Made by a program: the position numbers and the translations under genes | The notes under the pieces: model-generated | The model's database searches: none | What the model was told of the DNA's origin: nothing | Seen by the model: only the letters and a program-made list of their open reading frames with translations | Shown here: one piece after another, positions 14,053-37,605 of the stretch | Layout: each line of letters starts with the position of its first letter | Numbering within the stretch: the first letter of the stretch is position 1 | Source of the DNA: Elusimicrobiota bacterium | GTDB taxonomy: Bacteria > Elusimicrobiota > Elusimicrobia > Elusimicrobiales > UBA9959 | Reading direction: 5' to 3' | Assembly (NCBI GenBank): GCA_030639665.1 | Contig: DAOWCC010000002.1 | Coordinates: 1 to 37,605, forward strand | DNA length: 37,605 bases

Positions 14053-14904
14053 ATGAGTTTTAAATGCCTTGGTATTTTCCGTGAAAAAACAAATTCCCCA
14101 AACAGGGAAAACGATGATACCTTAATACTCAAAGGAGTGACGGAGGAATTATCACACCTTGGCGCCGAAACTCATTTAATAGAACCTGAAAGCATAGATA
14201 CCATTAATCCCAAGGACTGGGATGTCATTCTGCCTATGTGCGAGAATCTCCCAAATATTTCAAAACTTGCCGAATGGAAAGATAATTACCTCATAAATCC
14301 CGTGGATTCGGTTTTAAATTGCTATCGCAATAAAATGACTGATATACTGCAAAAAGAATCTTCGCCTTTCTATCCAAAAACGGAAAAAAAACTTATGGAA
14401 AATTTTCCGGGCGATATCCCGCCGATTTTTTTTACCGAGAAAGGCTGTTGGGTAAAAAGAGGAGATGTTCACAATACCTGCACTCATGATGTGCATTTTG
14501 TTAAAGATTGGAATGATTGCAAAAAAGTAAAAACAGATTTTGAGTCCAGAAATATAAAATCCGTTGTCATTCAAGATCATGTCCCGGGAGATTTAATAAA
14601 ATTCTACGGCATTGGACCGTATAAATGGTTTGATTGGTTTTACCACAGACCTCAAGAACTTTCCAATTTTAAGTTTGATTTAAAAGATTTGGAAAAAGCC
14701 GCCGGAGAAATCGCCAAATCCATGGACCTTGAAGTTTATGGCGGAGACGCGATAATAACACCTGAAAGTGAAATTTTCGTAATAGATATAAATAGCTGGC
14801 CAAGTTTTGCCAGAGTAAGAGATGAAGCTAAAGTTCATATAGCCGAACATATTTATTCAAAAAGAACTATAAACACCACACAGGAGCAGACTACGCTGAA
14901 GTGA
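14053..14904 (+). CDS. ATP-grasp-like enzyme (weak assignment)
   Basis: 283 aa. C-terminal half resembles ATP-grasp (VVIQDHVPGDLIKFYGIG...YGGDAIITPESEIFVIDINSWPSF). AGGAGA RBS. Confidence 0.45.
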   Translation: MSFKCLGIFREKTNSPNRENDDTLILKGVTEELSHLGAETHLIEPESIDTINPKDWDVILPMCENLPNISKLAEWKDNYLINPVDSVLNCYRNKMTDILQKESSPFYPKTEKKLMENFPGDIPPIFFTEKGCWVKRGDVHNTCTHDVHFVKDWNDCKKVKTDFESRNIKSVVIQDHVPGDLIKFYGIGPYKWFDWFYHRPQELSNFKFDLKDLEKAAGEIAKSMDLEVYGGDAIITPESEIFVIDINSWPSFARVRDEAKVHIAEHIYSKRTINTTQEQTTLK

Positions 14905-14954
14905 GATGTTGCTACGGACGCCTCACGGCGAACACAAAACAAGAAACTGATATT

Positions 14955-14962
14955 TGTATAAT
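14955..14962 (+). promoter_or_regulatory. Extended -10 promoter element TGTATAAT (repeat copy 1)
   Basis: Perfect TGnTATAAT match inside the duplicated unit. Confidence 0.4.
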
Positions 14963-15085
14963 ATTCTTGGAGATTTACCTAAGTTTAAACTAAAAACCTA
15001 TAACTAAGCCGGGAGAGCAGACTACGCTGAAGTGAGATGTTGCTACGGACGCCTCACGGCGAACACAAAACAAGAAACTGATATT

Positions 15086-15093
15086 TGTATAAT
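15086..15093 (+). promoter_or_regulatory. Extended -10 promoter element TGTATAAT (repeat copy 2), about 65 nt upstream of the aminotransferase ATG
   Basis: Perfect TGnTATAAT match, followed by a hairpin and a GGGAGAG RBS. Confidence 0.45.
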
Positions 15094-15157
15094 ATTCTTA
15101 AGAGATTTACTTAAAGTTTAAACTAAAAACCTATAACTAAGCCGGGAGAGCTACCAA

Positions 15158-18533: not shown

Positions 18534-18636
18534 AGCGACCTTCTTCTCCTCATTGCAATAGGCCTAAATACTCATAAAAAGATGGGACCTTGGTTACTGG
18601 TGGACCAATTTGATGGGTGCTATACTTTTACTACAT

Positions 18637-20025
18637 ATGAAAACTTTGATTCTCGCGCTTTCCATGTTTATCCCAATCGTAGGCTGGACAAACCCTTTCC
18701 CCGTTTCAAAGAATGCCGCGACAATTTCCCCTGAATTGTCTGGATTTATCGTACAATATGGCCCCGGCATGGGTCTTGGCATAAGCGCTCAAACCGGCAT
18801 ATTTCGGATTCAAGCCGGTTATAATAAAGAATCTAAAGCAGCCGCTCTTCCACCCTGCCTAATCTCGCATTTGGAAGATTTTGTGAGCGAACTTCCGAAA
18901 GAAAACATCGACCTTGGAATGGCCCTTATTCTCGGAGATTATTTATCTGTCAAAACACCTTCTCAGGATATTAACAAGTATCTTTCGGGAAACGGCACGA
19001 TGAATGTCCGCCTCAACAATACCGGACTCCGCCTCCTATCTGAATTATTGTTAAAAAAGGAAAATTGTGGGGAAATTGCGCCGGAGAATTTTGACACCGG
19101 AATCATTAAAGATATAAAAATTTCATCCGATACAGCCATGATAACTGACGAAAATTCCACCCGGTCATTGCGCTATTTAGAGACGATTCTATCCGACCCT
19201 GGAATCGCTTTTGAAGGAACGCGCAAAAACGAGGAAGAAGTCTGGTTGGACGGCAATACGGAAGAGGCCTCTCTCTATCAGGAATACAGAGTAAGCGGAG
19301 ACTCCGAATATTTGACCGCCTTTAACTCCAAACACCTGATTAAAACCAAACCGCCAAAACCGAAAAAAGAGGAGCCTCGCCGCGTCGTCAGAAGCGGATT
19401 TTGGGATGTGCGTTGGGCAAGACAGTGTTGGAAAGACATGGACATTCCCGTAGTGTCGGGCGTAATGGATTTTTTTGCCGGGATGGTACAATTCGCGCAG
19501 GATGACGGAGCCATTATCGGCTATGAAGGAATCACCTCGCCGAAAGGACGGAAAGCCGCGCTTGATTTTTTAGTAAACAGCTTTTGGATGGTGGCATCCG
19601 TTCCATCGGCATCAAAAGTTATAACCGGAGTGGCCGCCAATGTGGCCTCGAGTATATTCAAAGGCGGAAGCGCGGTCATTGGAAAATACAGAATAATATC
19701 CCGCTTTCATTCCGTTACCGGCGTAAATTATACGAATGCGGAACCCATATGGATAGGCGTGGAAAAAATTATAAAAGGTTCCGGCGCCGGCAAAGGAATA
19801 ATACATGTCGGGTTCGCCAAATTCCAAGCCGGAGCTCACATTGGTCTAAATTTCCTGGGAGAAACACATCTTTATCTTTCGCATGTCTATATAGGGGCAT
19901 TGAATATGACAATACCGAACGGGGTTATACGCGAACTCTGGAAATATTTTGACAACAAATCAAACACCGGAAACACACTTTCTTCCATGCCCGGAACTTT
20001 AGCGAAACAAAATCAATTATCGTGA
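18637..20025 (+). CDS. Secreted hypothetical protein
   Basis: Signal-peptide-like MKTLILALSMFIPIVGW if translation starts at ATG 18637 (the track ORF starts at 18610). No recognisable domain. Confidence 0.55.
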   Translation: MKTLILALSMFIPIVGWTNPFPVSKNAATISPELSGFIVQYGPGMGLGISAQTGIFRIQAGYNKESKAAALPPCLISHLEDFVSELPKENIDLGMALILGDYLSVKTPSQDINKYLSGNGTMNVRLNNTGLRLLSELLLKKENCGEIAPENFDTGIIKDIKISSDTAMITDENSTRSLRYLETILSDPGIAFEGTRKNEEEVWLDGNTEEASLYQEYRVSGDSEYLTAFNSKHLIKTKPPKPKKEEPRRVVRSGFWDVRWARQCWKDMDIPVVSGVMDFFAGMVQFAQDDGAIIGYEGITSPKGRKAALDFLVNSFWMVASVPSASKVITGVAANVASSIFKGGSAVIGKYRIISRFHSVTGVNYTNAEPIWIGVEKIIKGSGAGKGIIHVGFAKFQAGAHIGLNFLGETHLYLSHVYIGALNMTIPNGVIRELWKYFDNKSNTGNTLSSMPGTLAKQNQLS

Positions 20026-20184
20026 GCTTCCGAGTAAAAGACTTATTCAATAACAGTTTTTTATAAAGCAACAAAATAAACCTATCCTTTATTATTTCAT
20101 AAATCCCGCGTATATCAAGCTTGCCGGCCTTATGCAATAGTACTATAAAAAAATAGGTCCAAAGTCTGTAAAAACAACGGACTT

Positions 20185-20213
20185 TTGACTCATGCCCCTG
20201 CCAAACATATATA
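20185..20213 (+). promoter_or_regulatory. Sigma70-type promoter TTGACT-N17-TATATA
   Basis: Good hexamers with 17-nt spacing, about 55 nt upstream of ATG 20268, which carries an AAGGAGAG RBS. Confidence 0.5.
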
Positions 20214-20267
20214 TCAAACTATTTTATCGCAATATAACTTCTCAAAAAAAAAGGAGAGTACATAAGT

Positions 20268-20849
20268 ATGAAAAAAACAATGTGCATTATTACATTACTG
20301 ATAACGACGGCGGGATTCGTTTCGGCAAACAATCTTAACGAAACCGCTTTCTCAAAAGGCGCCCATTACACCGCCAACAACTGTGAGATATTTATAGACA
20401 AAATCAGCGCCAACAACAGTTCTCACGCATATAGAGGATTAAATATCTGGATAAAAACCATTAATTCCAGCCTGGATTCCGAAATCGCGGAAGTGGGTTT
20501 CCGCTATAAGAAAACGGGAATGGAATATTCATACGGCCCTATAGATACCGGATGGAAAGAGAAAAAACTAACTCCGCTTCTGGGAAGCAAGGATTATTTT
20601 ACACTCTCTATAGATATATCCAGTGGTTTCGGCTGGGCCGTGTATGAGGGAGCCTTCTATGTACGCACAAAAGCCGGAACAAACTATTGGTTCAAGCCGG
20701 CTGGCGGTGGTAATTTCGTCTTTGACGAGAACGCTTATAATAATATTGCCAATGCCATGGGAAATGTCGGTTACAGTAGTGGCGTCGACGCCGCATTACC
20801 GACACAAAGAGACGATTTAAACTATTATAACCCCGGAGTGTGTCATTAA
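20268..20849 (+). CDS. Secreted hypothetical protein (193 aa)
   Basis: Strong RBS. Signal peptide MKKTMCIITLLITTAGFVSA. No recognisable domain. Confidence 0.65.
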   Translation: MKKTMCIITLLITTAGFVSANNLNETAFSKGAHYTANNCEIFIDKISANNSSHAYRGLNIWIKTINSSLDSEIAEVGFRYKKTGMEYSYGPIDTGWKEKKLTPLLGSKDYFTLSIDISSGFGWAVYEGAFYVRTKAGTNYWFKPAGGGNFVFDENAYNNIANAMGNVGYSSGVDAALPTQRDDLNYYNPGVCH

Positions 20850-20853
20850 TTCA

Positions 20854-20876
20854 AAAATCCCCTTTAAGGGGATTTT
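20854..20876 (+). terminator. Stem-loop AAAATCCCC-tttaa-GGGGATTTT directly after the stop codon
   Basis: 9-bp stem. T-run forms part of and follows the 3' arm. Confidence 0.55.
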
Positions 20877-21035
20877 CAGAAGAGAACGACCGGAAGTTTT
20901 TAAATCCGGTCGTATCCGGTGGCAAAGCAACAATCCGTCCTAAAGCCAATTGCCGTTATCCTTAACAATAAAGACTGCCGATATTGTAAAGGTAAGCAAA
21001 CCAACGGAACTACAGTTTAACATCAAACAAATTAA

Positions 21036-21066
21036 ACTTCCGGCAACCTTGCGGGTTGCCGGAAGT
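21036..21066. other. Strong GC-rich hairpin ACTTCCGGCAACC-ttgcg-GGTTGCCGGAAGT in a 370-nt noncoding gap
   Basis: 13-bp perfect stem, flanked by T-rich sequence on the minus-strand side (TTAATTTGTTTG) and by ATTTGT on the plus side. Confidence 0.5.
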
Positions 21067-21249
21067 ATTTGTAAAAGATGCCAAATAATTGCCGACAAAC
21101 ATCCTTAAATGCTAAATTAATCTTGCCCCGTTAGAGGTATATAAGCAAAAGTTTTATCTAAACTGCCGAAAACGAGGAAAGTTCCAACGATTTATAATAA
21201 CTTCAAAGACTATGCGTCCCGCTGAGGGACTATCTCTAATGGGGTATCA

Positions 21250-22164
21250 ATGAAACCAATCCGCTTCTTAGTTTTACTCTCAATATTTTCTCTCTTGTTT
21301 GCCGGAAACTCATTTTCCGAAGAAAAAGCCACCACTTTTGAACTTCAGCTTGACCCCTATTATTCCGCCATAGGCGTTTACAATAGCTTAACGGGAAAAC
21401 CCATTCCTCATTTAAAAGGAAAATCGGAAACCGAAATTTACAAAAGATTGCTTTCAAAGTTTTATATGCCGAGAACCTTAATATTGGAAGCCAGCATCAA
21501 TCCCCTTCCTTATGGCGGCACTCTGATAAGAAAACACAATAAAAGATTCTATGATGATACGCAGGTCTCAGAAAGCCTTAATTTGGTGAAATCCGTAACT
21601 GCCGGATTTGAAGAGCCCTGGGCATTTTCAATCTTTCTTGGCAATGTGGTTTCTTTCGATTCCATAAAAAGCGATTTTCTGGGAAAAAGAAAAGGTTATT
21701 CCGGCCTATTGCTCGACCTTGGAAATAAGCATATAAAAGACAATGTTCTTATTGATGATAATTGGGCGCAAATGGAATTAAAACTTAAAGGAGAACAAAT
21801 ACTTAAAGACCGCAGTTTAACCTGGAGTTTCAGAGTAGGCTCAAAATTTCATGAACATAAAGACATATCGGATTCTTTTTTTCTGGGTTTCCGTCGCAGC
21901 CGAACCGACTTTAAGCAATCCGGCAATTTCTGGATGAATAATAGCGGCTTTACATATGCTTCTTATTTTTCTCAAACCAATTTTAAACCCATTAAACATA
22001 TCTTTATCGTGGATAAAAAATTTCCGTTTAAAAAATCGAGGAAAGCGTTTTGTCTCGGCCTGGGGTTTGTATGGGAATCCAATAATAAATATTCAGGAAA
22101 CCTCGCCGCTCAAGATTCTTCCCCCAACTTCCAGTTCCTTATCAGACCCAATCTGGAATTCTAA
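21250..22164 (+). CDS. Outer-membrane/secreted hypothetical protein (possible beta-barrel)
   Basis: Signal peptide MKPIRFLVLLSIFSLLFAGNSFS. Alternating-hydrophobicity segments. C-terminal ...RPNLEF ends in Phe, as in many OMPs. Confidence 0.6.
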   Translation: MKPIRFLVLLSIFSLLFAGNSFSEEKATTFELQLDPYYSAIGVYNSLTGKPIPHLKGKSETEIYKRLLSKFYMPRTLILEASINPLPYGGTLIRKHNKRFYDDTQVSESLNLVKSVTAGFEEPWAFSIFLGNVVSFDSIKSDFLGKRKGYSGLLLDLGNKHIKDNVLIDDNWAQMELKLKGEQILKDRSLTWSFRVGSKFHEHKDISDSFFLGFRRSRTDFKQSGNFWMNNSGFTYASYFSQTNFKPIKHIFIVDKKFPFKKSRKAFCLGLGFVWESNNKYSGNLAAQDSSPNFQFLIRPNLEF

Positions 22165-22180
22165 AAACTTTAAACTATAT

Positions 22181-22429
22181 CGGCAAAGTTTTTACGCTCA
22201 CTAAACTATGCGGGATAGCAGGTATATTTACACGCATGACCAAGGTCGCTTAGTACTGCGCCTTTCCGTATCTCAGCCTCCAAGTAAGCCCAAGTCGGCT
22301 TCCGAACGGCCATGCTTAGCAAACACACCTACTATCCCATTGCCTCATTTATTATTTGATTCTTTATTAAGAAATCCCAACCCCAATTAAGATAAACCTG
22401 AATTACCCAACCCTGCATAAGGAGAACCT
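22181..22429 (-). repeat. GC-rich noncoding element, copy A (sense on the minus strand), immediately 3' of the 197-aa orphan ORF
   Basis: Read on the minus strand: CCTTATGCAGGGTTGGGTAATTCAGGTTTATCTTAATTGGGGTTGGG ... GGCGCAGTACTAAGCGACCTTGGTCATGCGTGTAAATATACCTGC ... AAAAACTTTGCC. Aligns block by block with copy B on the plus strand. Confidence 0.85.
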
Positions 22430-23023
22430 TTATAAATTACCTTCACGAATTTCAGAACGAACAAAAGCATTATAAGTAGTATATTGCTTCGATTTGGCTT
22501 CTATATTAATTACTCCAATTTTTTTTCTATATTCATCAACACGACCTCGTAATTCATTAGGTAATGGTCTATCATCCCCAGACACATGTTTTTCGTTATT
22601 TGGATCACCATACATTGGAAACATTTTTCTAACTTTAATCATCGCTTCATCTGAATTTAATCCCTCTTTCTTAAAAGTTTCAAAACTAGCAAAACGAAAA
22701 ATATCTTCTGACCAAAAAACCATCCTTCTCTGTAAATCATTTAAATTCCAAAATTCTCGTATATCATCATCTGTAGCTTTTTCCTTTCGTGCTCTATCCA
22801 CAATTTTTCTAGAATTTGAATTACCATTTACTGCTTCTCGCAACAATAAATCACCATAATTTTCAGGAAGATTATTAGTGCCTTCTTTCAATGCCTGTTT
22901 TTTAGAAACTTTAATTCCCATTCTTGTTAATTCTTGAGCTTTTTCTAATGTCATACCACAAACCCGAGACATCATTTGAGAATACATTTCTTCTAACTCT
23001 TTTTCAATATCGGAGTTATTCAT
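22430..23023 (-). CDS. Orphan hypothetical protein (197 aa)
   Basis: Clean ORF with an AAAGG RBS region. No motif I can assign. Flanked by inverted copies A and B. Confidence 0.6.
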   Translation of the reverse strand: MNNSDIEKELEEMYSQMMSRVCGMTLEKAQELTRMGIKVSKKQALKEGTNNLPENYGDLLLREAVNGNSNSRKIVDRARKEKATDDDIREFWNLNDLQRRMVFWSEDIFRFASFETFKKEGLNSDEAMIKVRKMFPMYGDPNNEKHVSGDDRPLPNELRGRVDEYRKKIGVINIEAKSKQYTTYNAFVRSEIREGNL

Positions 23024-23073
23024 TTTTTATTTACCTTTATGTGTATCTATTTTATTTTTTAGTTCTCCCTAGG

Positions 23074-23104
23074 AACAATATATCAAATTCCATCAGACAT
23101 TACC
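23074..23104 (-). promoter_or_regulatory. Conserved promoter-like box (minus strand GGTAATGTCTGATGGAATTTGATATATTGTT, extended -10 TGATATATT)
   Basis: Near-identical boxes at 35809-35840 and 35321-35353. Each lies about 40-60 nt upstream of an orphan ORF start. Confidence 0.55.
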
Positions 23105-23538
23105 TTATGTCGGGTGGGTCCGCCCTTTCTGGGCGAGATCTCGCCAATGGCAGTTGCCAATGGCGGATAATTCGGCTGTACCTTAATTTGGGTTGGGCGG
23201 GAACTATTCTCTGAAAAAAGTTAAAGAGGTTGGTAAATATTAAGCGGGTGGCAGTAAGATTTGCCGAGCAGGGATGTTCGGAACCCGACTTATAACATGC
23301 AGGAGGGTGGGTGGACTGGGCTTTCAAAGGACTGCTACGGACACAAGTTCTCGAGTTGCTATCTTGCAGTGAGACGAAAGGGCGCAGTACTAAGCGACCC
23401 TGGTCTTGCATGTAAATACACCTGCCATGACTCAATAAACTGTGTAGACCCCGGTCCCAAAGGTAAATATCGAAAAACCTCTAATCACTGAAGAAAATTT
23501 ACTAACAGAACCCGCCCTAACCAAAACCTTTGCCAGCC
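23103..23538 (+). repeat. GC-rich noncoding element, copy B (sense on the plus strand), the longest copy
   Basis: Shares its 5' blocks with A and C (CCTTATG, TAATTC, CTTAATTTGGGTTGGGCGGGA, GGCAGTAAGATTT). Shares the 19-mer GGCGCAGTACTAAGCGACC with A and the 18-mer GGTCCCAAAGGTAAATAT with C. Confidence 0.85.
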
Positions 23539-23553
23539 TAATCTCAGTAAACA

Positions 23554-23590
23554 TAAAAAAAGCGGCCAAATTATATTTGAGCCGCTTTTT
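23554..23590 (-). terminator. Rho-independent terminator of the atp operon (bidirectional hairpin)
   Basis: AGCGGC-N14-GCCGCT stem, flanked by an A-run and a T-run. On the minus strand the stem is followed by TTTTTTT. Confidence 0.75.
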
Positions 23591-23656
23591 GATTTTAAAA
23601 CTATCTCACAATTTTTTAGCTGCCAAGCTGCCAAACTGTCGAGCTGATTACTGATG

Positions 23657-24088
23657 TTACTTCTTTCTTCGACGCTGCTTGCCTTTTATTTCCAAGGCTT
23701 TGATTCTCAATGAACTGCGTCTTAACGCGGCATTAGCGGCATCCAAATCTATGTCCGCGCCTTTCGCCAAAAGAGCATCTTTAGCTTTTTGATATTCCTG
23801 GCGGGCTGTTTCCTCATCTATTTCTTTTGTAAGCTCCGCGCCCTCGGCAAGAACTATAACTTTATTTTTATCAACTTGCGCGAAACCACCCAAAATGGCA
23901 AACATCTCTTCTCCCTCTTCAGAGGAATATCTCAAAAAACCGTCTTTAAGCTGAACAACAAATGAAATATGACCTGGCAATATTCCCATCTCGCCTTCGG
24001 ATGCGGGAAGAGCGACAAAATCAACTTTCCCCTCAGAAAGATAAACCTTTTCAGGAGTCACTATGCTTAATATTATTTTTTCTTTCAT
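23657..24088 (-). CDS. atpC: F1 ATP synthase subunit epsilon
   Basis: N-terminal beta-sandwich motif (VTPEK...ALPASEGEMGILPGH) and operon position after atpD. Confidence 0.9.
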   Translation of the reverse strand: MKEKIILSIVTPEKVYLSEGKVDFVALPASEGEMGILPGHISFVVQLKDGFLRYSSEEGEEMFAILGGFAQVDKNKVIVLAEGAELTKEIDEETARQEYQKAKDALLAKGADIDLDAANAALRRSSLRIKALEIKGKQRRRKK

Positions 24089-34402: not shown

Positions 34403-35263
34403 TTAATCCCACTCATTCCAGCTCTTCTTCTCCGAATCATAAGTATATTTCATAAACATGAAAGTTTTGCAGGTCATAATATAACCATCCTCTCCTACGG
34501 CGGGACCGGGGAATGGAGTATCATTCAGCCTCTTGAGAAAATATAAAAGTCTACGCCTTCTACCCGGACATTTAGGCACGGCCGCAATATAGTCAGGGAC
34601 AAGCGCAGAGGGATGAGAAGGGTAATACCCTGTTTTGGCATGATAACTGTCTATAGCGGAAATCAGAGGCTGCATGGTTTTCTGAATTTTATGTCTTAAA
34701 TAATATCCGCCGTGAACCATTCCGGCGGCCCCCAGAATAACAGCCAACATCCAGACAAAAGCCTTCCGTTTGTCAGCCAAACCCTTTGGCGTAGGTTTTG
34801 AGTGATAGCCAGTCGCCATAACAAAAAACCGTCCTACTGTAAATAGTAAGGCGATACCGATAAATGGATAAAGCATCATCTGGATATTGAATGACAAATG
34901 ACTCAGAATCCAGAACGCAATCACAAAAATAATAGCGCCCCATGGGATAGAAACTCGGCTTGCGACCTCCGTCGTTTCCATGGTTTTGCTACCCACTTGC
35001 TCTTCAACTTTACAAATTACAGGCGCCGCTCTTTCTTCCGGGGAACCGGAATCGGGACACAATGACATTATCCACTTGTAAGAGCGAATCATTAGAGCAT
35101 ACGCCCCCCACGCTAAAAACGCGTAAACAATAGTCTTAAGCGGGGTTCCTATTCTTAAATTTAGAACGGCGATAAGCGCAAAATGTAGCGCCGCTATTGC
35201 CAAGATTATGGTAATTATCCACGCAAATATTTTAATTACAATCTTATAGATTGATATAGCCAT
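34403..35263 (-). CDS. Orphan polytopic membrane protein with a soluble C-terminal domain
   Basis: Several TM helices. The C-terminal segment ISAIDSYHAKTGYYPSHPSALVPDYIAAVPKCPG is reminiscent of the pseudopilin/GspG-type motif. ATG 35263 has an AGAGGA RBS (the track gives TTG 35281). Confidence 0.6.
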   Translation of the reverse strand: MAISIYKIVIKIFAWIITIILAIAALHFALIAVLNLRIGTPLKTIVYAFLAWGAYALMIRSYKWIMSLCPDSGSPEERAAPVICKVEEQVGSKTMETTEVASRVSIPWGAIIFVIAFWILSHLSFNIQMMLYPFIGIALLFTVGRFFVMATGYHSKPTPKGLADKRKAFVWMLAVILGAAGMVHGGYYLRHKIQKTMQPLISAIDSYHAKTGYYPSHPSALVPDYIAAVPKCPGRRRRLLYFLKRLNDTPFPGPAVGEDGYIMTCKTFMFMKYTYDSEKKSWNEWD

Positions 35264-35320
35264 AAATCCTCTTGCACTCAACGGAATGTTTTAAATTTTT
35301 GCTTATACCCAACTTCCTTA

Positions 35321-35353
35321 AAAATAATATATCAAATTCATCGAACATTACCC
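35321..35353 (-). promoter_or_regulatory. Conserved promoter-like box (minus strand GGGTAATGTTCGATGAATTTGATATATTATTTT)
   Basis: Third copy of the box, upstream of the membrane-protein ORF. Confidence 0.5.
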
Positions 35354-35382
35354 TTTTCTTGCGATTGGTTTATTTAAAGAAG

Positions 35383-35443
35383 TGCCCACACCCTAATTAT
35401 TACTTGAATTACCCAACCCAAAACAAGGAAAGCATTTATAAAT
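35383..35443 (-). repeat. GC-rich noncoding element, truncated copy D (first ~60 nt only), immediately 3' of the 107-aa ORF
   Basis: Minus strand TTTCCTTGTTTTGGGTTGGGTAATTCAAGTAATAATTAGGGTGTGGGCAC parallels the start of copy A, CCTTATGCAGGGTTGGGTAATTCAGGTTTATCTTAATTGGGGTTGGG. Confidence 0.7.
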
Positions 35444-35767
35444 TTAATTATTTTTAAGAACTTGTTCTAAAACATGATTTATAGCCATTTTTGCACCTTT
35501 AGAAGTTTTAGAATCTTGAAGAACTGGGTCTATAAACTTAATTTTAACCTCATCCAAAGGGATAGGACCACAAAGTTCAAAAACCAAATTAGACTTTGCT
35601 TTATCAACAGCATCAACATCCTTTTGAGTCTTTGTTCCTGTGCGTTGCATATTATCCCAAGCAACATTCGAAACCTCAATTAATTTTGAACAACACTCTC
35701 TAATATTTGCCTCAGATGTTTCGATTGCCTTTTTTTTAAACCAAGAAATAATTTTTGATATCATCAT
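35444..35767 (-). CDS. Orphan hypothetical protein (107 aa)
   Basis: Clean ORF with a GAGGGAGAGGG RBS. No recognisable motif. Confidence 0.55.
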   Translation of the reverse strand: MMISKIISWFKKKAIETSEANIRECCSKLIEVSNVAWDNMQRTGTKTQKDVDAVDKAKSNLVFELCGPIPLDEVKIKFIDPVLQDSKTSKGAKMAINHVLEQVLKNN

Positions 35768-35808
35768 CCCTCTCCCTCTATGTTATTTAAGTACACATTA
35801 TAACTTAA

Positions 35809-35840
35809 AAACAATATATCAAATTCATCAGAAATTTCCT
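35809..35840 (-). promoter_or_regulatory. Conserved promoter-like box (minus strand GGAAATTTCTGATGAATTTGATATATTGTTT)
   Basis: Second copy of the box, about 40 nt upstream of the 107-aa ORF. Confidence 0.55.
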
Positions 35841-36096
35841 TATGACAAGGGTAATTCCGCCGTATCTTAATTAGGGTTGGGAGGGATATTTATATACAAA
35901 GGAAACAACGATGCTGCGAAGGGTTGGCAGTAAGATTTTGCGGAATAATATTAATGAGGCATTTCGGTGTTTGCCTGTGGGGCTCTTCGGAGCTCCGCAT
36001 ACGCTTACAGCGGAGTGAGAGAGAGAAGGGCGGGCTTGGCTCGTGCCGACCCTGGTCCCAAAGGTAAATATTGAAAGGCCTCTAATTAAACCCTAG
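35838..36096 (+). repeat. GC-rich noncoding element, copy C (sense on the plus strand)
   Basis: CCTTATG..GGGTAATTC..TCTTAATTAGGGTTGGGAGGGA..GGCAGTAAGATTT..GACCCTGGTCCCAAAGGTAAATAT..CCTCTAAT, as in copy B. Contains a UUCG-capped hairpin at 35979-35996. Confidence 0.85.
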
Positions 36097-36104
36097 TGGA
36101 ATAT

Positions 36105-36344
36105 TTAGCGGGAGCAATTGACGCAGAGAGGAGTTTCCGGCATGGCCTCTAGGCGGGCTTCGGCAATCGGCTTCTCACAAGCGACACAAATTCCGTAAGC
36201 CTTACCGCTTAAGATTTTTCCCAACCAATCCCCCTTTCTACTAATTTTTATCTGAAAAACCTTCGCAAAACGCTTCAAAAAGTTTTTCCGCAGTGGCAAA
36301 TTTTTCCTCAAGATCACTCCCGAATAAACTACTTGCAATAGCAT
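36105..36344 (-). CDS. DksA/TraR-type C4 zinc-finger small protein (start uncertain)
   Basis: C-terminus CVACEKPIAEARLEAMPETPLCVNC is a CxxC-N17-CxxC TraR/DksA finger. The 79-aa ATG version overlaps the upstream gene by 104 nt. An alternative TTG at 36224, with an AGGGGGA RBS, gives 39 aa. Confidence 0.45.
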   Translation of the reverse strand: MLLQVVYSGVILRKNLPLRKNFLKRFAKVFQIKISRKGDWLGKILSGKAYGICVACEKPIAEARLEAMPETPLCVNCSR

Positions 36345-37077
36345 TTAAAAGTTTCTCTTTTTTATTCAAAATCTCTTTTATACTATTTATATTTTTAGCA
36401 TTCAAAATCATCCGAACATCTCTTCCCAAAAGAACAGCTCCGACTTTTTCAATATCAGAATCCAACACACGCAATAATTCTATATCTTCATATAAGCGTT
36501 TCTCATCTAAAATCAGGTTATATTTATGAAGTAATATGGAAATATCTTGCGCGTCTTTGGGTTCAAATCTATCATTCCATGCCAAAAGCTTTAATACCAT
36601 CAATCCAGGTATGGATGCAATGCGTATTACCATTTTATTTTTAAAAATATTTATCTCTTCTGCCGCGGCATTGATATCCTGAAACCCTTGCACATTCATA
36701 ATCATATCACCATCAGGCGGCCAAGAAATGGAACCTTGCGGTTTTTCCAATTTCCCAAATGGAAGCAAATCAATTGGCATTTTCTCTTTATAAATCAATC
36801 GCTGACATTTCTTACTATCATTTTTAAAATCACCTGTTTTTATCAGCTGATTTTTTAAATAATTAAATTCCTCCCAACTTTTAAGCGCTACTATAAAATC
36901 TATATCTTCGGTAGGACGATATATCGGCAAACCATGCACATTATGTAAAAGCAAATCTACTGCCCTGCCACCAACTAATAAATAAGAAACTCCCATTTTC
37001 TTCGTGGCATCTTGAATATACCGTAATACCTCTAAAACTTCAGGCTCCATAGGAAAATCTTTTTTAATCGTAAGCAT
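36241..37077 (-). CDS. Nucleotidyltransferase, AbiEii-like toxin of a type IV toxin-antitoxin / abortive-infection pair
   Basis: N-terminal LLVGGRAVDLL...RPTEDIDFIV (GG.A...T.DIDF NTase motif). 14-nt overlap with the upstream AbiEi-like gene. Confidence 0.6.
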   Translation of the reverse strand: MLTIKKDFPMEPEVLEVLRYIQDATKKMGVSYLLVGGRAVDLLLHNVHGLPIYRPTEDIDFIVALKSWEEFNYLKNQLIKTGDFKNDSKKCQRLIYKEKMPIDLLPFGKLEKPQGSISWPPDGDMIMNVQGFQDINAAAEEINIFKNKMVIRIASIPGLMVLKLLAWNDRFEPKDAQDISILLHKYNLILDEKRLYEDIELLRVLDSDIEKVGAVLLGRDVRMILNAKNINSIKEILNKKEKLLNAIASSLFGSDLEEKFATAEKLFEAFCEGFSDKN

Positions 37078-37605
37078 TGGCTATATATTGCTCATAAATA
37101 ATTTTTGCTACTTCATGATTGCGTGGGTCTTTAGTTGCCATTAAATCCGCGTATACAAGTAATGGCGGAACAATTTGCTTCTCTTCATTATCAAAATTAA
37201 AGTTCCAAAATTTTTCCACTATTTCCACAGACCCGTGAGGATTAGATTTAAGACGATTATCAATAATAATTTTTGTGAGATTGCCTTCCATATAAAAAAG
37301 AGCATTACTCGGCTTTCTGTAATGAGTGAGAATATCTCCGGCAATTTCTCCTCCAAATAAAGCCCCATATTTTTCTGGATTCAAATTTTCCCACCAACTA
37401 TCTTTTGGAGCGCTAAAACATTGCGTTCGTAATTTTGGACGAAGTTTAATCGGATAATTTATAACCCATTCCTCTATTAAACGCTTTGGATTAATAAAAC
37501 GACGCTTCTTGCCTTTCTCACCAAATAGCAAGTGACCTCTTTCTTTAAGGGCAAAAAAAACCCATCCCACGGAACCTAAAGCAACTCCCGCAGCTTCGGC
37601 AATAT
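37064..37605 (-). CDS. AbiEi-family antitoxin/transcriptional regulator (N-terminus outside window)
   Basis: Frame stays open to the window edge (upstream peptide ...IAEAAGVALGSVGWVFFALKERGHLL looks like a wHTH). C-terminal pattern FWNFNF...VPPLLVYADLMATKDPRNHEVAKIIYEQYI is typical of the AbiEi C-domain. Confidence 0.6.
   Translation of the reverse strand, partial: IAEAAGVALGSVGWVFFALKERGHLLFGEKGKKRRFINPKRLIEEWVINYPIKLRPKLRTQCFSAPKDSWWENLNPEKYGALFGGEIAGDILTHYRKPSNALFYMEGNLTKIIIDNRLKSNPHGSVEIVEKFWNFNFDNEEKQIVPPLLVYADLMATKDPRNHEVAKIIYEQYIANAYD

Follow-up and report, generated by a model that had tools for sequence, protein, structure and literature searches.

The attC sites of integrons (Vibrio cholerae repeats) are single hairpins of 57-141 nucleotides (nt) with RYYYAAC and GTTRRRY cores that act as folded single-stranded DNA, and their cassettes lie in one orientation beside intI and attI. 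The large ornate non-coding RNAs (ncRNAs) OLE, GOLLD, ROOL and HEARO/omega, whose functions are unknown or were found only lately, are all represented in Rfam and are mostly single-copy or tied to a specific gene (IscB/TnpB for omega). A repetitive extragenic palindromic (REP) unit is a palindrome of 20-40 nt; the REPINs, of about 100 nt, are REP doublets mobilised by RAYT transposases (PMC3116915, PMC3337134). Correia elements of Neisseria measure 100-155 bp, carry terminal inverted repeats of 26 bp as well as a TA duplication, and have copies of high identity (PMC2649163, PMC2229807, PMC10969869), and bidirectional bacterial promoters arise from symmetry of the -10 element (10.1101/2020.01.31.928960; PMC12825309). 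Here we analyse a repeat found in a stretch of 37,605 nt from an Elusimicrobiota bacterium (contig DAOWCC010000002.1, positions 1 to 37,605; hereafter the window), two copies of which, the inverted arms A and B, enclose an open reading frame (ORF) of 197 amino acids (aa) at 22181-23538. The explanation that we favour, with confidence somewhat better than even, is that the arms are paralogues of a new modular structured-RNA element, whose heads carry a two-way promoter box and mark sites of accessory-gene gain and loss.

The inverted homologous arms lie where the original prediction had placed them, A at 22181-22429 on the minus strand and B at 23103-23538 on the plus strand, both reading outward from the ORF. 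The features of this first cassette are the following.

22181..22429, minus strand: copy A, the short paralogue, from its alignment to B and from nhmmer (core E 5e-34, head E 8e-12)
22375-22429, minus strand: head of copy A
22213-22338, minus strand: core fold of copy A
about 22181-22203, minus strand: tail motif of copy A (AAAAACTTTGCCG)
22430..23023, minus strand: 197-aa accessory gene, of a conserved, all-alpha protein family
23066..23102, no strand assigned: conserved box at the head of copy B, with the exact 14-mer AATATATCAAATTC at 23077-23090
23103..23538, plus strand: copy B, the long paralogue, from alignment, nhmmer and folding
23103-23205, plus strand: head of copy B, into which two hairpins (about 48 nt, at about 23110-23157) are inserted
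23244-23430, plus strand: core fold of copy B, with a 60-nt extension at about 23311-23370
23442-23485, plus strand: 3' hairpin module of copy B
23523-23538, plus strand: tail of copy B (AAAACCTTTGCC)
23557..23590, no strand assigned: hairpin plus T-run, an inverted repeat common to the end of B (plus) and to atpC (minus)

A repeat finder run on 21800-23900 gave as the longest inverted pair 22215-22277 / 23366-23428 (63 nt, 84% complementary), together with two more colinear inverted blocks, 22376-22408 / 23165-23197 and 22292-22323 / 23260-23291, and either arm used as blastn query against the window retrieved the other one at E of about 1e-14. Alignment with MAFFT of the reverse complement of 22165-22432 and 23098-23560 recovered the motifs that had been listed as shared by the arms and also the large insertions and deletions described between them, B having insertions of 48 nt and 60 nt relative to A. 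Three occurrences of the head pattern TAATTC-N8-CTTAATT-N-GGGTTGGG were counted in the window, and none in any of 100 shuffles. Copy A begins 1 nt past the stop codon of the ORF (22430-22432) and the arms are richer in GC than the ORF (0.44-0.51 against about 0.31), both as previously reported. Read outward, the two arms are homologues of one another and not complements, and the core fold is common to both. Their outer ends share an inverted 12-nt motif, GGCAAAGNTTTT, but the best-conserved part of the element is the inner head.

The pair A and B is not the only one. By blastn, two copies that the original prediction had missed, C and D, were found in the same window, with the same layout around an ORF of 107 aa. 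The features of this second cassette, at 35345-36090, are the following.

35315..35352, no strand assigned: third box copy (14-mer at 35326-35339), located at D's far end and about 45 nt upstream of a 292-aa ORF
35345..35433, minus strand: copy D, head only, belonging to one sub-type with the head of A (blastn; nhmmer head E 2.5e-6)
35444..35767, minus strand: 107-aa ORF, an orphan, cargo of the second cassette
35802..35835, no strand assigned: second copy of the box, between the 107-aa ORF and C, with the 14-mer at 35813-35826
35836..36090, plus strand: copy C (blastn, nhmmer)

Copy D forms a direct repeat with the head of A (43 nt at 81% identity) and starts about 10 nt past the stop codon of the 107-aa ORF. 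The head of C is 85-89% identical to the other heads and its body is different, with a 3' hairpin module (36043-36086) that is 86% identical to that of B. The 107-aa ORF is a true orphan, its sole database match being a 97% identical same-strain variant, with no credible match in Pfam. Adjoining copy C are an AbiEii/AbiEi pair (type IV toxin-antitoxin / abortive infection) and a small DksA/TraR zinc-finger ORF (36105-37570), which places the second cassette in a defence-type neighbourhood. The layout of a divergent copy, the box, one or more ORFs and a co-oriented copy is thus found at 22181-23538, at 35345-36090 and, among the related loci (designated here by L numbers), at L014, where two small membrane ORFs are enclosed and the arms differ in their bodies. 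At L010, an unrelated locus of another metagenome-assembled genome (MAG), a head-to-head pair encloses no ORF but only about 90 nt.

Since inverted repeats of 63 nt at 84% flank the segment that holds the promoter box and the ORF, site-specific or homologous recombination between the arms could in principle invert it, as had been proposed. We consider this highly improbable. No change of orientation is seen between the window and L017, for the first cassette, or between the window and L018, L019 and L045, for the second one, these four being independent assemblies of the same strain. Moreover, the putative promoter box lies inside the segment, so that flipping would not switch expression, the arms differ by large insertions and deletions, and the window has no invertase or recombinase. 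The earlier statement that it lacks any transposase, integrase, invertase or reverse transcriptase holds for every ORF scanned, Pfam searches included.

The fold of the element was examined by covariation in an alignment of eight cores, those of A, B, L009, L010a, L010b, L016, L027m and L036. The RNAalifold consensus contains 39 pairs arranged in five helices, and 16 of these pairs have compensatory double changes. The proportion of paired cells is 91.0%, as compared with 39-43% when the 3' partners were slid by 1-3 columns; the slid controls contained 4-6 pairs with double changes, and the observed value was reached by 0 of 500 column shuffles on each of five measures. The pairing differs between the strands: on the sense, G-rich strand there are 48 G.U cells at 91.0% paired, and on the antisense strand only 7 at 77.9% paired. 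This asymmetry argues for selection on the strand rich in G, plus for B and C and minus for A and D. Single-sequence folds are modestly better than those of shuffled sequences (z = -3.3 for A and -2.8 for B). No reading frame is open across the eight copies on either strand. The possibility that the arms code for protein, considered on account of the shared peptides DQGRLVLR and AVLSDPG, was dropped, as every frame is interrupted in at least one copy and the insertions and deletions cause frameshifts. Taken together, the compensatory changes, the strand asymmetry of G.U pairs and the lack of a coding frame lead to the prediction that the element is a structured RNA, read outward in both arms. 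Of the options offered in the original prediction, that of two structured RNA copies fits best; its central part stands with the outward-strand fold, and its further parts, that one copy is the 3' untranslated region (UTR) of the ORF and the other is transcribed divergently, are plausible extrapolations from the arrangement.

The head is about 45 nt long, built of G-tracts and conserved in sequence (GGGTAATTC-N8-CTTAATT-N-GGGTTGGG-N-GGGA, with an AT-rich centre); its mean column identity is 85% over 12 copies. Three or four G3 tracts are present in most heads. A hairpin of the head suggested by minimum-free-energy folds was discarded as unsupported, its few variable columns not covarying. The core is multi-helix and closed by a long stem; it starts with GGCAGU, ends with ACUGCC and contains the invariant GGA-containing motifs GGAGG and CGGAAG. 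The 3' part comprises a hairpin, GACCCYGG...GGUAAAUAU..., followed by CCUCUAAU and by the tail AAAACYUUUGCC (AAAACYTTTGCC tail). Hairpin modules are inserted optionally, as the 48 nt in the head of B or the 60 nt by which the cores of B, L010b and L009 are extended, and the length of the copies ranges from 130 nt, in the minimal copy of L039 made of head, 3' hairpin and tail, to about 450 nt, with B at about 440 nt. Orthologous copies may keep the head yet swap the whole body, as do C and L008 at the DksA-zinc-finger site; hence, the family is mosaic.

Several observations adjoin this anatomy. In most heads the G3 tracts follow the layout GGG-22 nt-GGG-TT-GGG-N-GGG (23165-23205, 35849-35890, 22375-22410), which might fold into a G-quadruplex whose first loop is long. 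At the DksA-zinc-finger site, L008/L027 117-634 and window 35821-36219 have heads 86% identical and the same flanking gene but wholly different bodies; the 320-nt body of L008/L027 is 83.5% identical to L014-right, another copy in that MAG, which points to exchange of body modules between copies. Other GC-rich repeated modules occur in intergenic regions near the element (L046 1690-3141, L038 5916-6100, L016 4093-4200) and include GGCGGAAACTGCGGAG, antisense pieces of the core extension and, in L046, a direct repeat of about 270 nt; these genomes seem to hold several interleaved repeat families.

That the head is conserved by sequence and not by covariation, that most copies have three to four G3 tracts and that one breakpoint of each strain or species difference coincides with a head (see below) could be accounted for if the arms acted as DNA, as protein-binding or recombination sites, for example with a G-quadruplex head, or if they were decaying repeats, the RNA fold being incidental in either case. 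The core makes this quite improbable: its 16 compensatory pairs and its strand-specific G.U pairing are unlike neutral decay or a duplex-DNA site, and the paralogues are old and have kept their fold.

The element constitutes an undescribed multi-copy family dispersed in a narrow clade of Elusimicrobiota. In a scan of one genome per species, the head pattern was matched in six contigs of one Elusimicrobiaceae MAG and in one contig of another Elusimicrobiota MAG, besides two chance matches; a scan of metagenomes returned the same organisms plus one new contig, L036. With nhmmer profiles of head and core, about 17 distinct copies were catalogued in related Elusimicrobiota MAGs and metagenome contigs, and fragments of further modules are present in a relative at 79% protein identity (L046). 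These counts, from nhmmer and pattern scans, are lower bounds, as the scans of large collections used one exact head pattern and diverged copies are under-counted. Viral contigs gave no match to the head pattern, and phage and plasmid records gave none to the whole block (blastn) or to the 197-aa ORF (tblastn). Rfam 15 has no match in the window at the gathering threshold and, at permissive E-values, only chance-level ones (E >= 0.2) in 22100-23650; in nine related loci that hold copies it recognised only two tRNAs. A scan of the window for tRNA and tmRNA found none, and our literature search returned no RNA or repeat family of such kind from Elusimicrobia. Solitary copies outnumber pairs. The tail faces the 3' end of a convergent gene in 11 of the 16 copies examined, often a few nt from its stop codon, and at least seven copies (A, D, L014-left, L015, L016, L027m and L039) sit behind a co-oriented, usually small ORF.

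The 14-mer AATATATCAAATTC has three exact copies in the window, each 45-55 nt upstream of the start of a minus-strand ORF, namely those of 197 aa, 107 aa and 292 aa (a membrane protein at 34403-35281, minus), and two of the three directly precede the heads of B and C. Read leftward, the box is TTTGATATATT; this looks like an extended -10 and stands 54 nt ahead of the ATG of the 197-aa ORF. Read toward the element it offers -10-like hexamers as well, CAATATATCAAATTC being -10-like on both strands. Beyond the -10 the conservation ends after 3-4 nt, the 5' UTRs being unrelated to one another. The heads of A/D type have instead TATAAA 6-9 nt before CCTTATG (8 nt in A, where it overlaps the stop codon of the ORF), and -10-like hexamers are conserved upstream of the heads. 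From the conservation of the box and its resemblance to an extended -10, we infer that it would act as a bidirectional promoter. At the other end of B, the hairpin and T-run shared with atpC is read as a putative bidirectional intrinsic terminator; the terminator pattern scan did not call it, and an orthologous perfect hairpin with T-run is present in L039. Copy L036 is likewise followed by an intrinsic terminator on its sense strand.

With a box shared by the ORF and the divergent RNA, both could be co-regulated, and A, in the 3' UTR of the messenger, and free B could compete for one putative binding factor, B thereby tuning stability or translation of the ORF messenger. Such a decoy pair would profit from the common core fold of A and B when read outward, from the recurrence of the architecture three times with unrelated ORFs and from the invariant GGAGG and CGGAAG of the core. 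It is nevertheless improbable: D consists of a head and has no core, the arms of L014 have different bodies, and most copies are solitary.

Comparison with related genomes shows how the first cassette differs between lineages. The 304-aa gene at its left is conserved in Elusimicrobiota. In L039/L040, with 89% identity at the protein level and about 84% in the nucleotides of both flanks, 167 nt stand in place of window 22168-23522 (1355 nt), and these hold only the minimal 130-nt copy, in the position and orientation of B and beside the atpC terminator. Copy B is orthologous to this minimal element of L039; therefore, B was resident at the site, and either it grew or the copy of the relative shrank. 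Copy A, the 197-aa ORF and the box are what the window has in addition to L039/L040. At the cassette site, L038 (91% protein identity) and L046 (79%) have yet other sequences. Sharp divergence just upstream of a head was found in three more comparisons (L016 with L024, L014 with L030, and the window with L027), so that every strain or species difference compared has one breakpoint just upstream of a head.

These comparisons bear on the foldback cassette of the original prediction, that is, a non-autonomous unit of the MITE (miniature inverted-repeat transposable element) or REPIN kind, moved by an enzyme encoded elsewhere, for instance a RAYT-like Y1 transposase or a tyrosine recombinase. Such a unit would explain why a relative with about 84% identity in the flanks has 167 nt in place of the block, why pairs with other cargos (L014) and an empty head-to-head pair at an unrelated locus (L010) exist, and why a multi-copy family has the inverted 12-nt motif GGCAAAGNTTTT at its outer ends. 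However, no target-site duplication was found in the flanks 22170-22181 and 23538-23550, nor at the L010 pair. The seemingly empty site holds the orthologous minimal B, so the change is a replacement of 167 nt and 1355 nt for one another and not a clean insertion. Within-genome copies are 67-84% identical, with most pairs at 67-80%, and the best pair reaches 83.5% over 176 nt; no pair exceeds about 84% over more than 100 nt, which argues against a recent burst. Furthermore, solitary copies are in excess over pairs, the closest relatives of the cargo have no arms, a G.U-dependent multi-helix fold on one strand is not needed by transposon ends, and neither transposase nor recombinase lies in the window. 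What stands of the foldback proposal is the absence of the block in a close relative, the occurrence of other cargos and the empty pair; what does not is a cassette moved whole, and we hold it to be unlikely.

Cross-species pairs are as similar as within-genome ones (B-L010b 80%, L016-L036 80%, A-L036 77%), which indicates that the sub-families predate the species and are old, and were maintained together with their fold. The copies therefore look, from their divergence, like old paralogues with no recent burst, and such a pattern is not what one would expect of a MITE population in decay.

The cargo of the first cassette had been labelled an orphan, wrongly: 79 homologues of the 197-aa protein were found, at 32-64% identity and with E as low as 1e-76 outside the species, in MAGs that carry the labels Bacteroidota, Caldisericum, Zixibacteria and others. 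In other phyla the neighbours of the homologues include integrase, restriction-modification, MazE/PrlF antitoxin and IS1595 genes. An AlphaFold2 model has ten helices at a mean predicted local distance difference test (pLDDT) score of 94.9; Foldseek found no fold match in PDB or BFVD, and no match was found in Pfam, PHROGs, PADLOC or PDB sequences. No element is present at the loci of the homologues (L001-L007, L043, L044), and the closest ones outside the species of the window, L043 (64%) and L044 (59%), are among those that have no arms. A link of the ORF family with the arms was rejected on these grounds, and the 197-aa ORF is, as its distribution suggests, an accessory gene unrelated to the arms.

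In the structured-RNA reading that we prefer, each copy would be transcribed in the outward direction, beginning at its head. The box at the head of B, with its near-symmetric -10, would fire both ways and hence serve also as promoter of the 197-aa gene, whose transcript would run into copy A and in this way acquire a structured 3' end. The unrelated accessory ORF would have come between two heads by recombination at or beside the heads; the block would not have arrived by whole-block transposition, nor would it be an invertible switch. As to the role of the RNA, our guess, made by analogy with REP and bacterial interspersed mosaic elements (BIMEs) or with Correia elements, is that of a protein-binding or transcript-end-protecting module.

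Several points weigh against this reading. The covariation rests on eight cores only, all of them paralogues, which do not constitute an independent sample. The head, at 85% column identity, is nearly invariant and too conserved for its structure to be probed by covariation. The pattern scan for sigma-70 promoters did not call the box, and transcription of the copies is a prediction from sequence. Recombination at the heads rests on four pairwise comparisons, and the mechanism of gene gain is a proposal, a trans-acting enzyme encoded elsewhere in the genome being possible.

A bolder version of the same idea, which we regard as rather unlikely, is that the structured RNA repeat is a platform for gene capture and expression, integron-like but with no visible integrase, in one Elusimicrobiota clade. 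The G-tract head, possibly through a G-quadruplex or a dedicated recombinase, would then be a site-specific hot spot for the insertion or exchange of promoter-less accessory ORFs, to which it would give a bidirectional promoter, the partner copy giving the 3' end of the transcript.

If the preferred structured-RNA reading is true, a large (130-450 nt), covariation-supported RNA family absent from Rfam would be added from a poorly studied, mostly uncultured phylum. It would be a dispersed repeat kept as a folded RNA over long periods and not decaying as a MITE does, and one tied to both turnover and expression of accessory genes through the shared box, the structured 3' end and the breakpoints at heads. 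It would also offer a testable handle on how small orphan genes get installed in streamlined environmental genomes, with, as first cargo, a widespread protein family that has a confident model and no known fold relative.

The rest of the window is ordinary chromosome, with gatB, pil genes, O-antigen ligases, the atp operon and the AbiE pair. Two other variable places were noted in it. A stretch of 2.7 kb at 18534-21244 is missing from both relatives that cover the region (L038, L039); it contains ORFs of 471 aa and 193 aa that have no family match, besides non-coding DNA (about 400 nt). The element has no copy at either border, and the stretch is, going by these two comparisons, another lineage-specific insertion. 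At 14884-15151, between two sugar-metabolism ORFs, there is a tandem duplication that is perfect, its two copies being 100% identical at a period of about 131 nt; to some 194 nt of the window correspond only about 62 nt in L038, and the duplication is either recent or an assembly artefact.

Comparison with described systems should be made on several levels. The element shares with ornate ncRNAs a long, multi-helix, covariation-supported fold, restriction to a lineage and frequent location in variable or mobile regions, but it differs from them in being multi-copy and modular, in having no constant protein neighbour and in matching no Rfam family by sequence or structure. The likeness to integron attC sites resides in ORFs that are small, often orphans, and have a structured repeat behind each of them, in repeats conserved within the lineage and in a promoter, here predicted, outside the cargo. 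The head sequence GTTGGGY also fits the attC core GTTRRRY, which is a low-information pattern expected once in 1024, although length and fold do not fit. In contrast to attC arrays, the repeats are inverted around the ORF, are far longer and fold as RNA read outward, and there is no integrase. The predicted box resembles bidirectional promoters in being -10-like on both strands, with an ORF at one side and the RNA element at the other, though promoter rules in Elusimicrobiota may differ.

In the manner in which it would work, and by analogy, the element most resembles REP/BIME/REPIN and Correia elements. With the former it has in common a dispersed intergenic distribution at gene 3' ends or between convergent genes, a mosaic and modular build, folding when transcribed, long persistence in a lineage and inverted doublets with a short spacer, to which the L010 pair may be compared. 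However, the arms here measure 130-450 nt and their core is a multi-helix junction that covariation supports; pairs may surround entire genes, and no RAYT is found in the window or in the related loci examined. With Correia elements and other MITEs it shares multiple copies, outward promoters and co-transcription with neighbours (both predicted here), and the marking of strain-to-strain differences; it departs from them in the lack of a duplication, in low identity and in that the most conserved part is the inner head and not the outer terminus. It falls outside both groups in size, terminal structure, duplication and identity of the copies. Among dispersed structured intergenic repeats, the element is unusual for its size, its nested modularity, its junction fold supported by covariation and its repeated bracketing of accessory genes.

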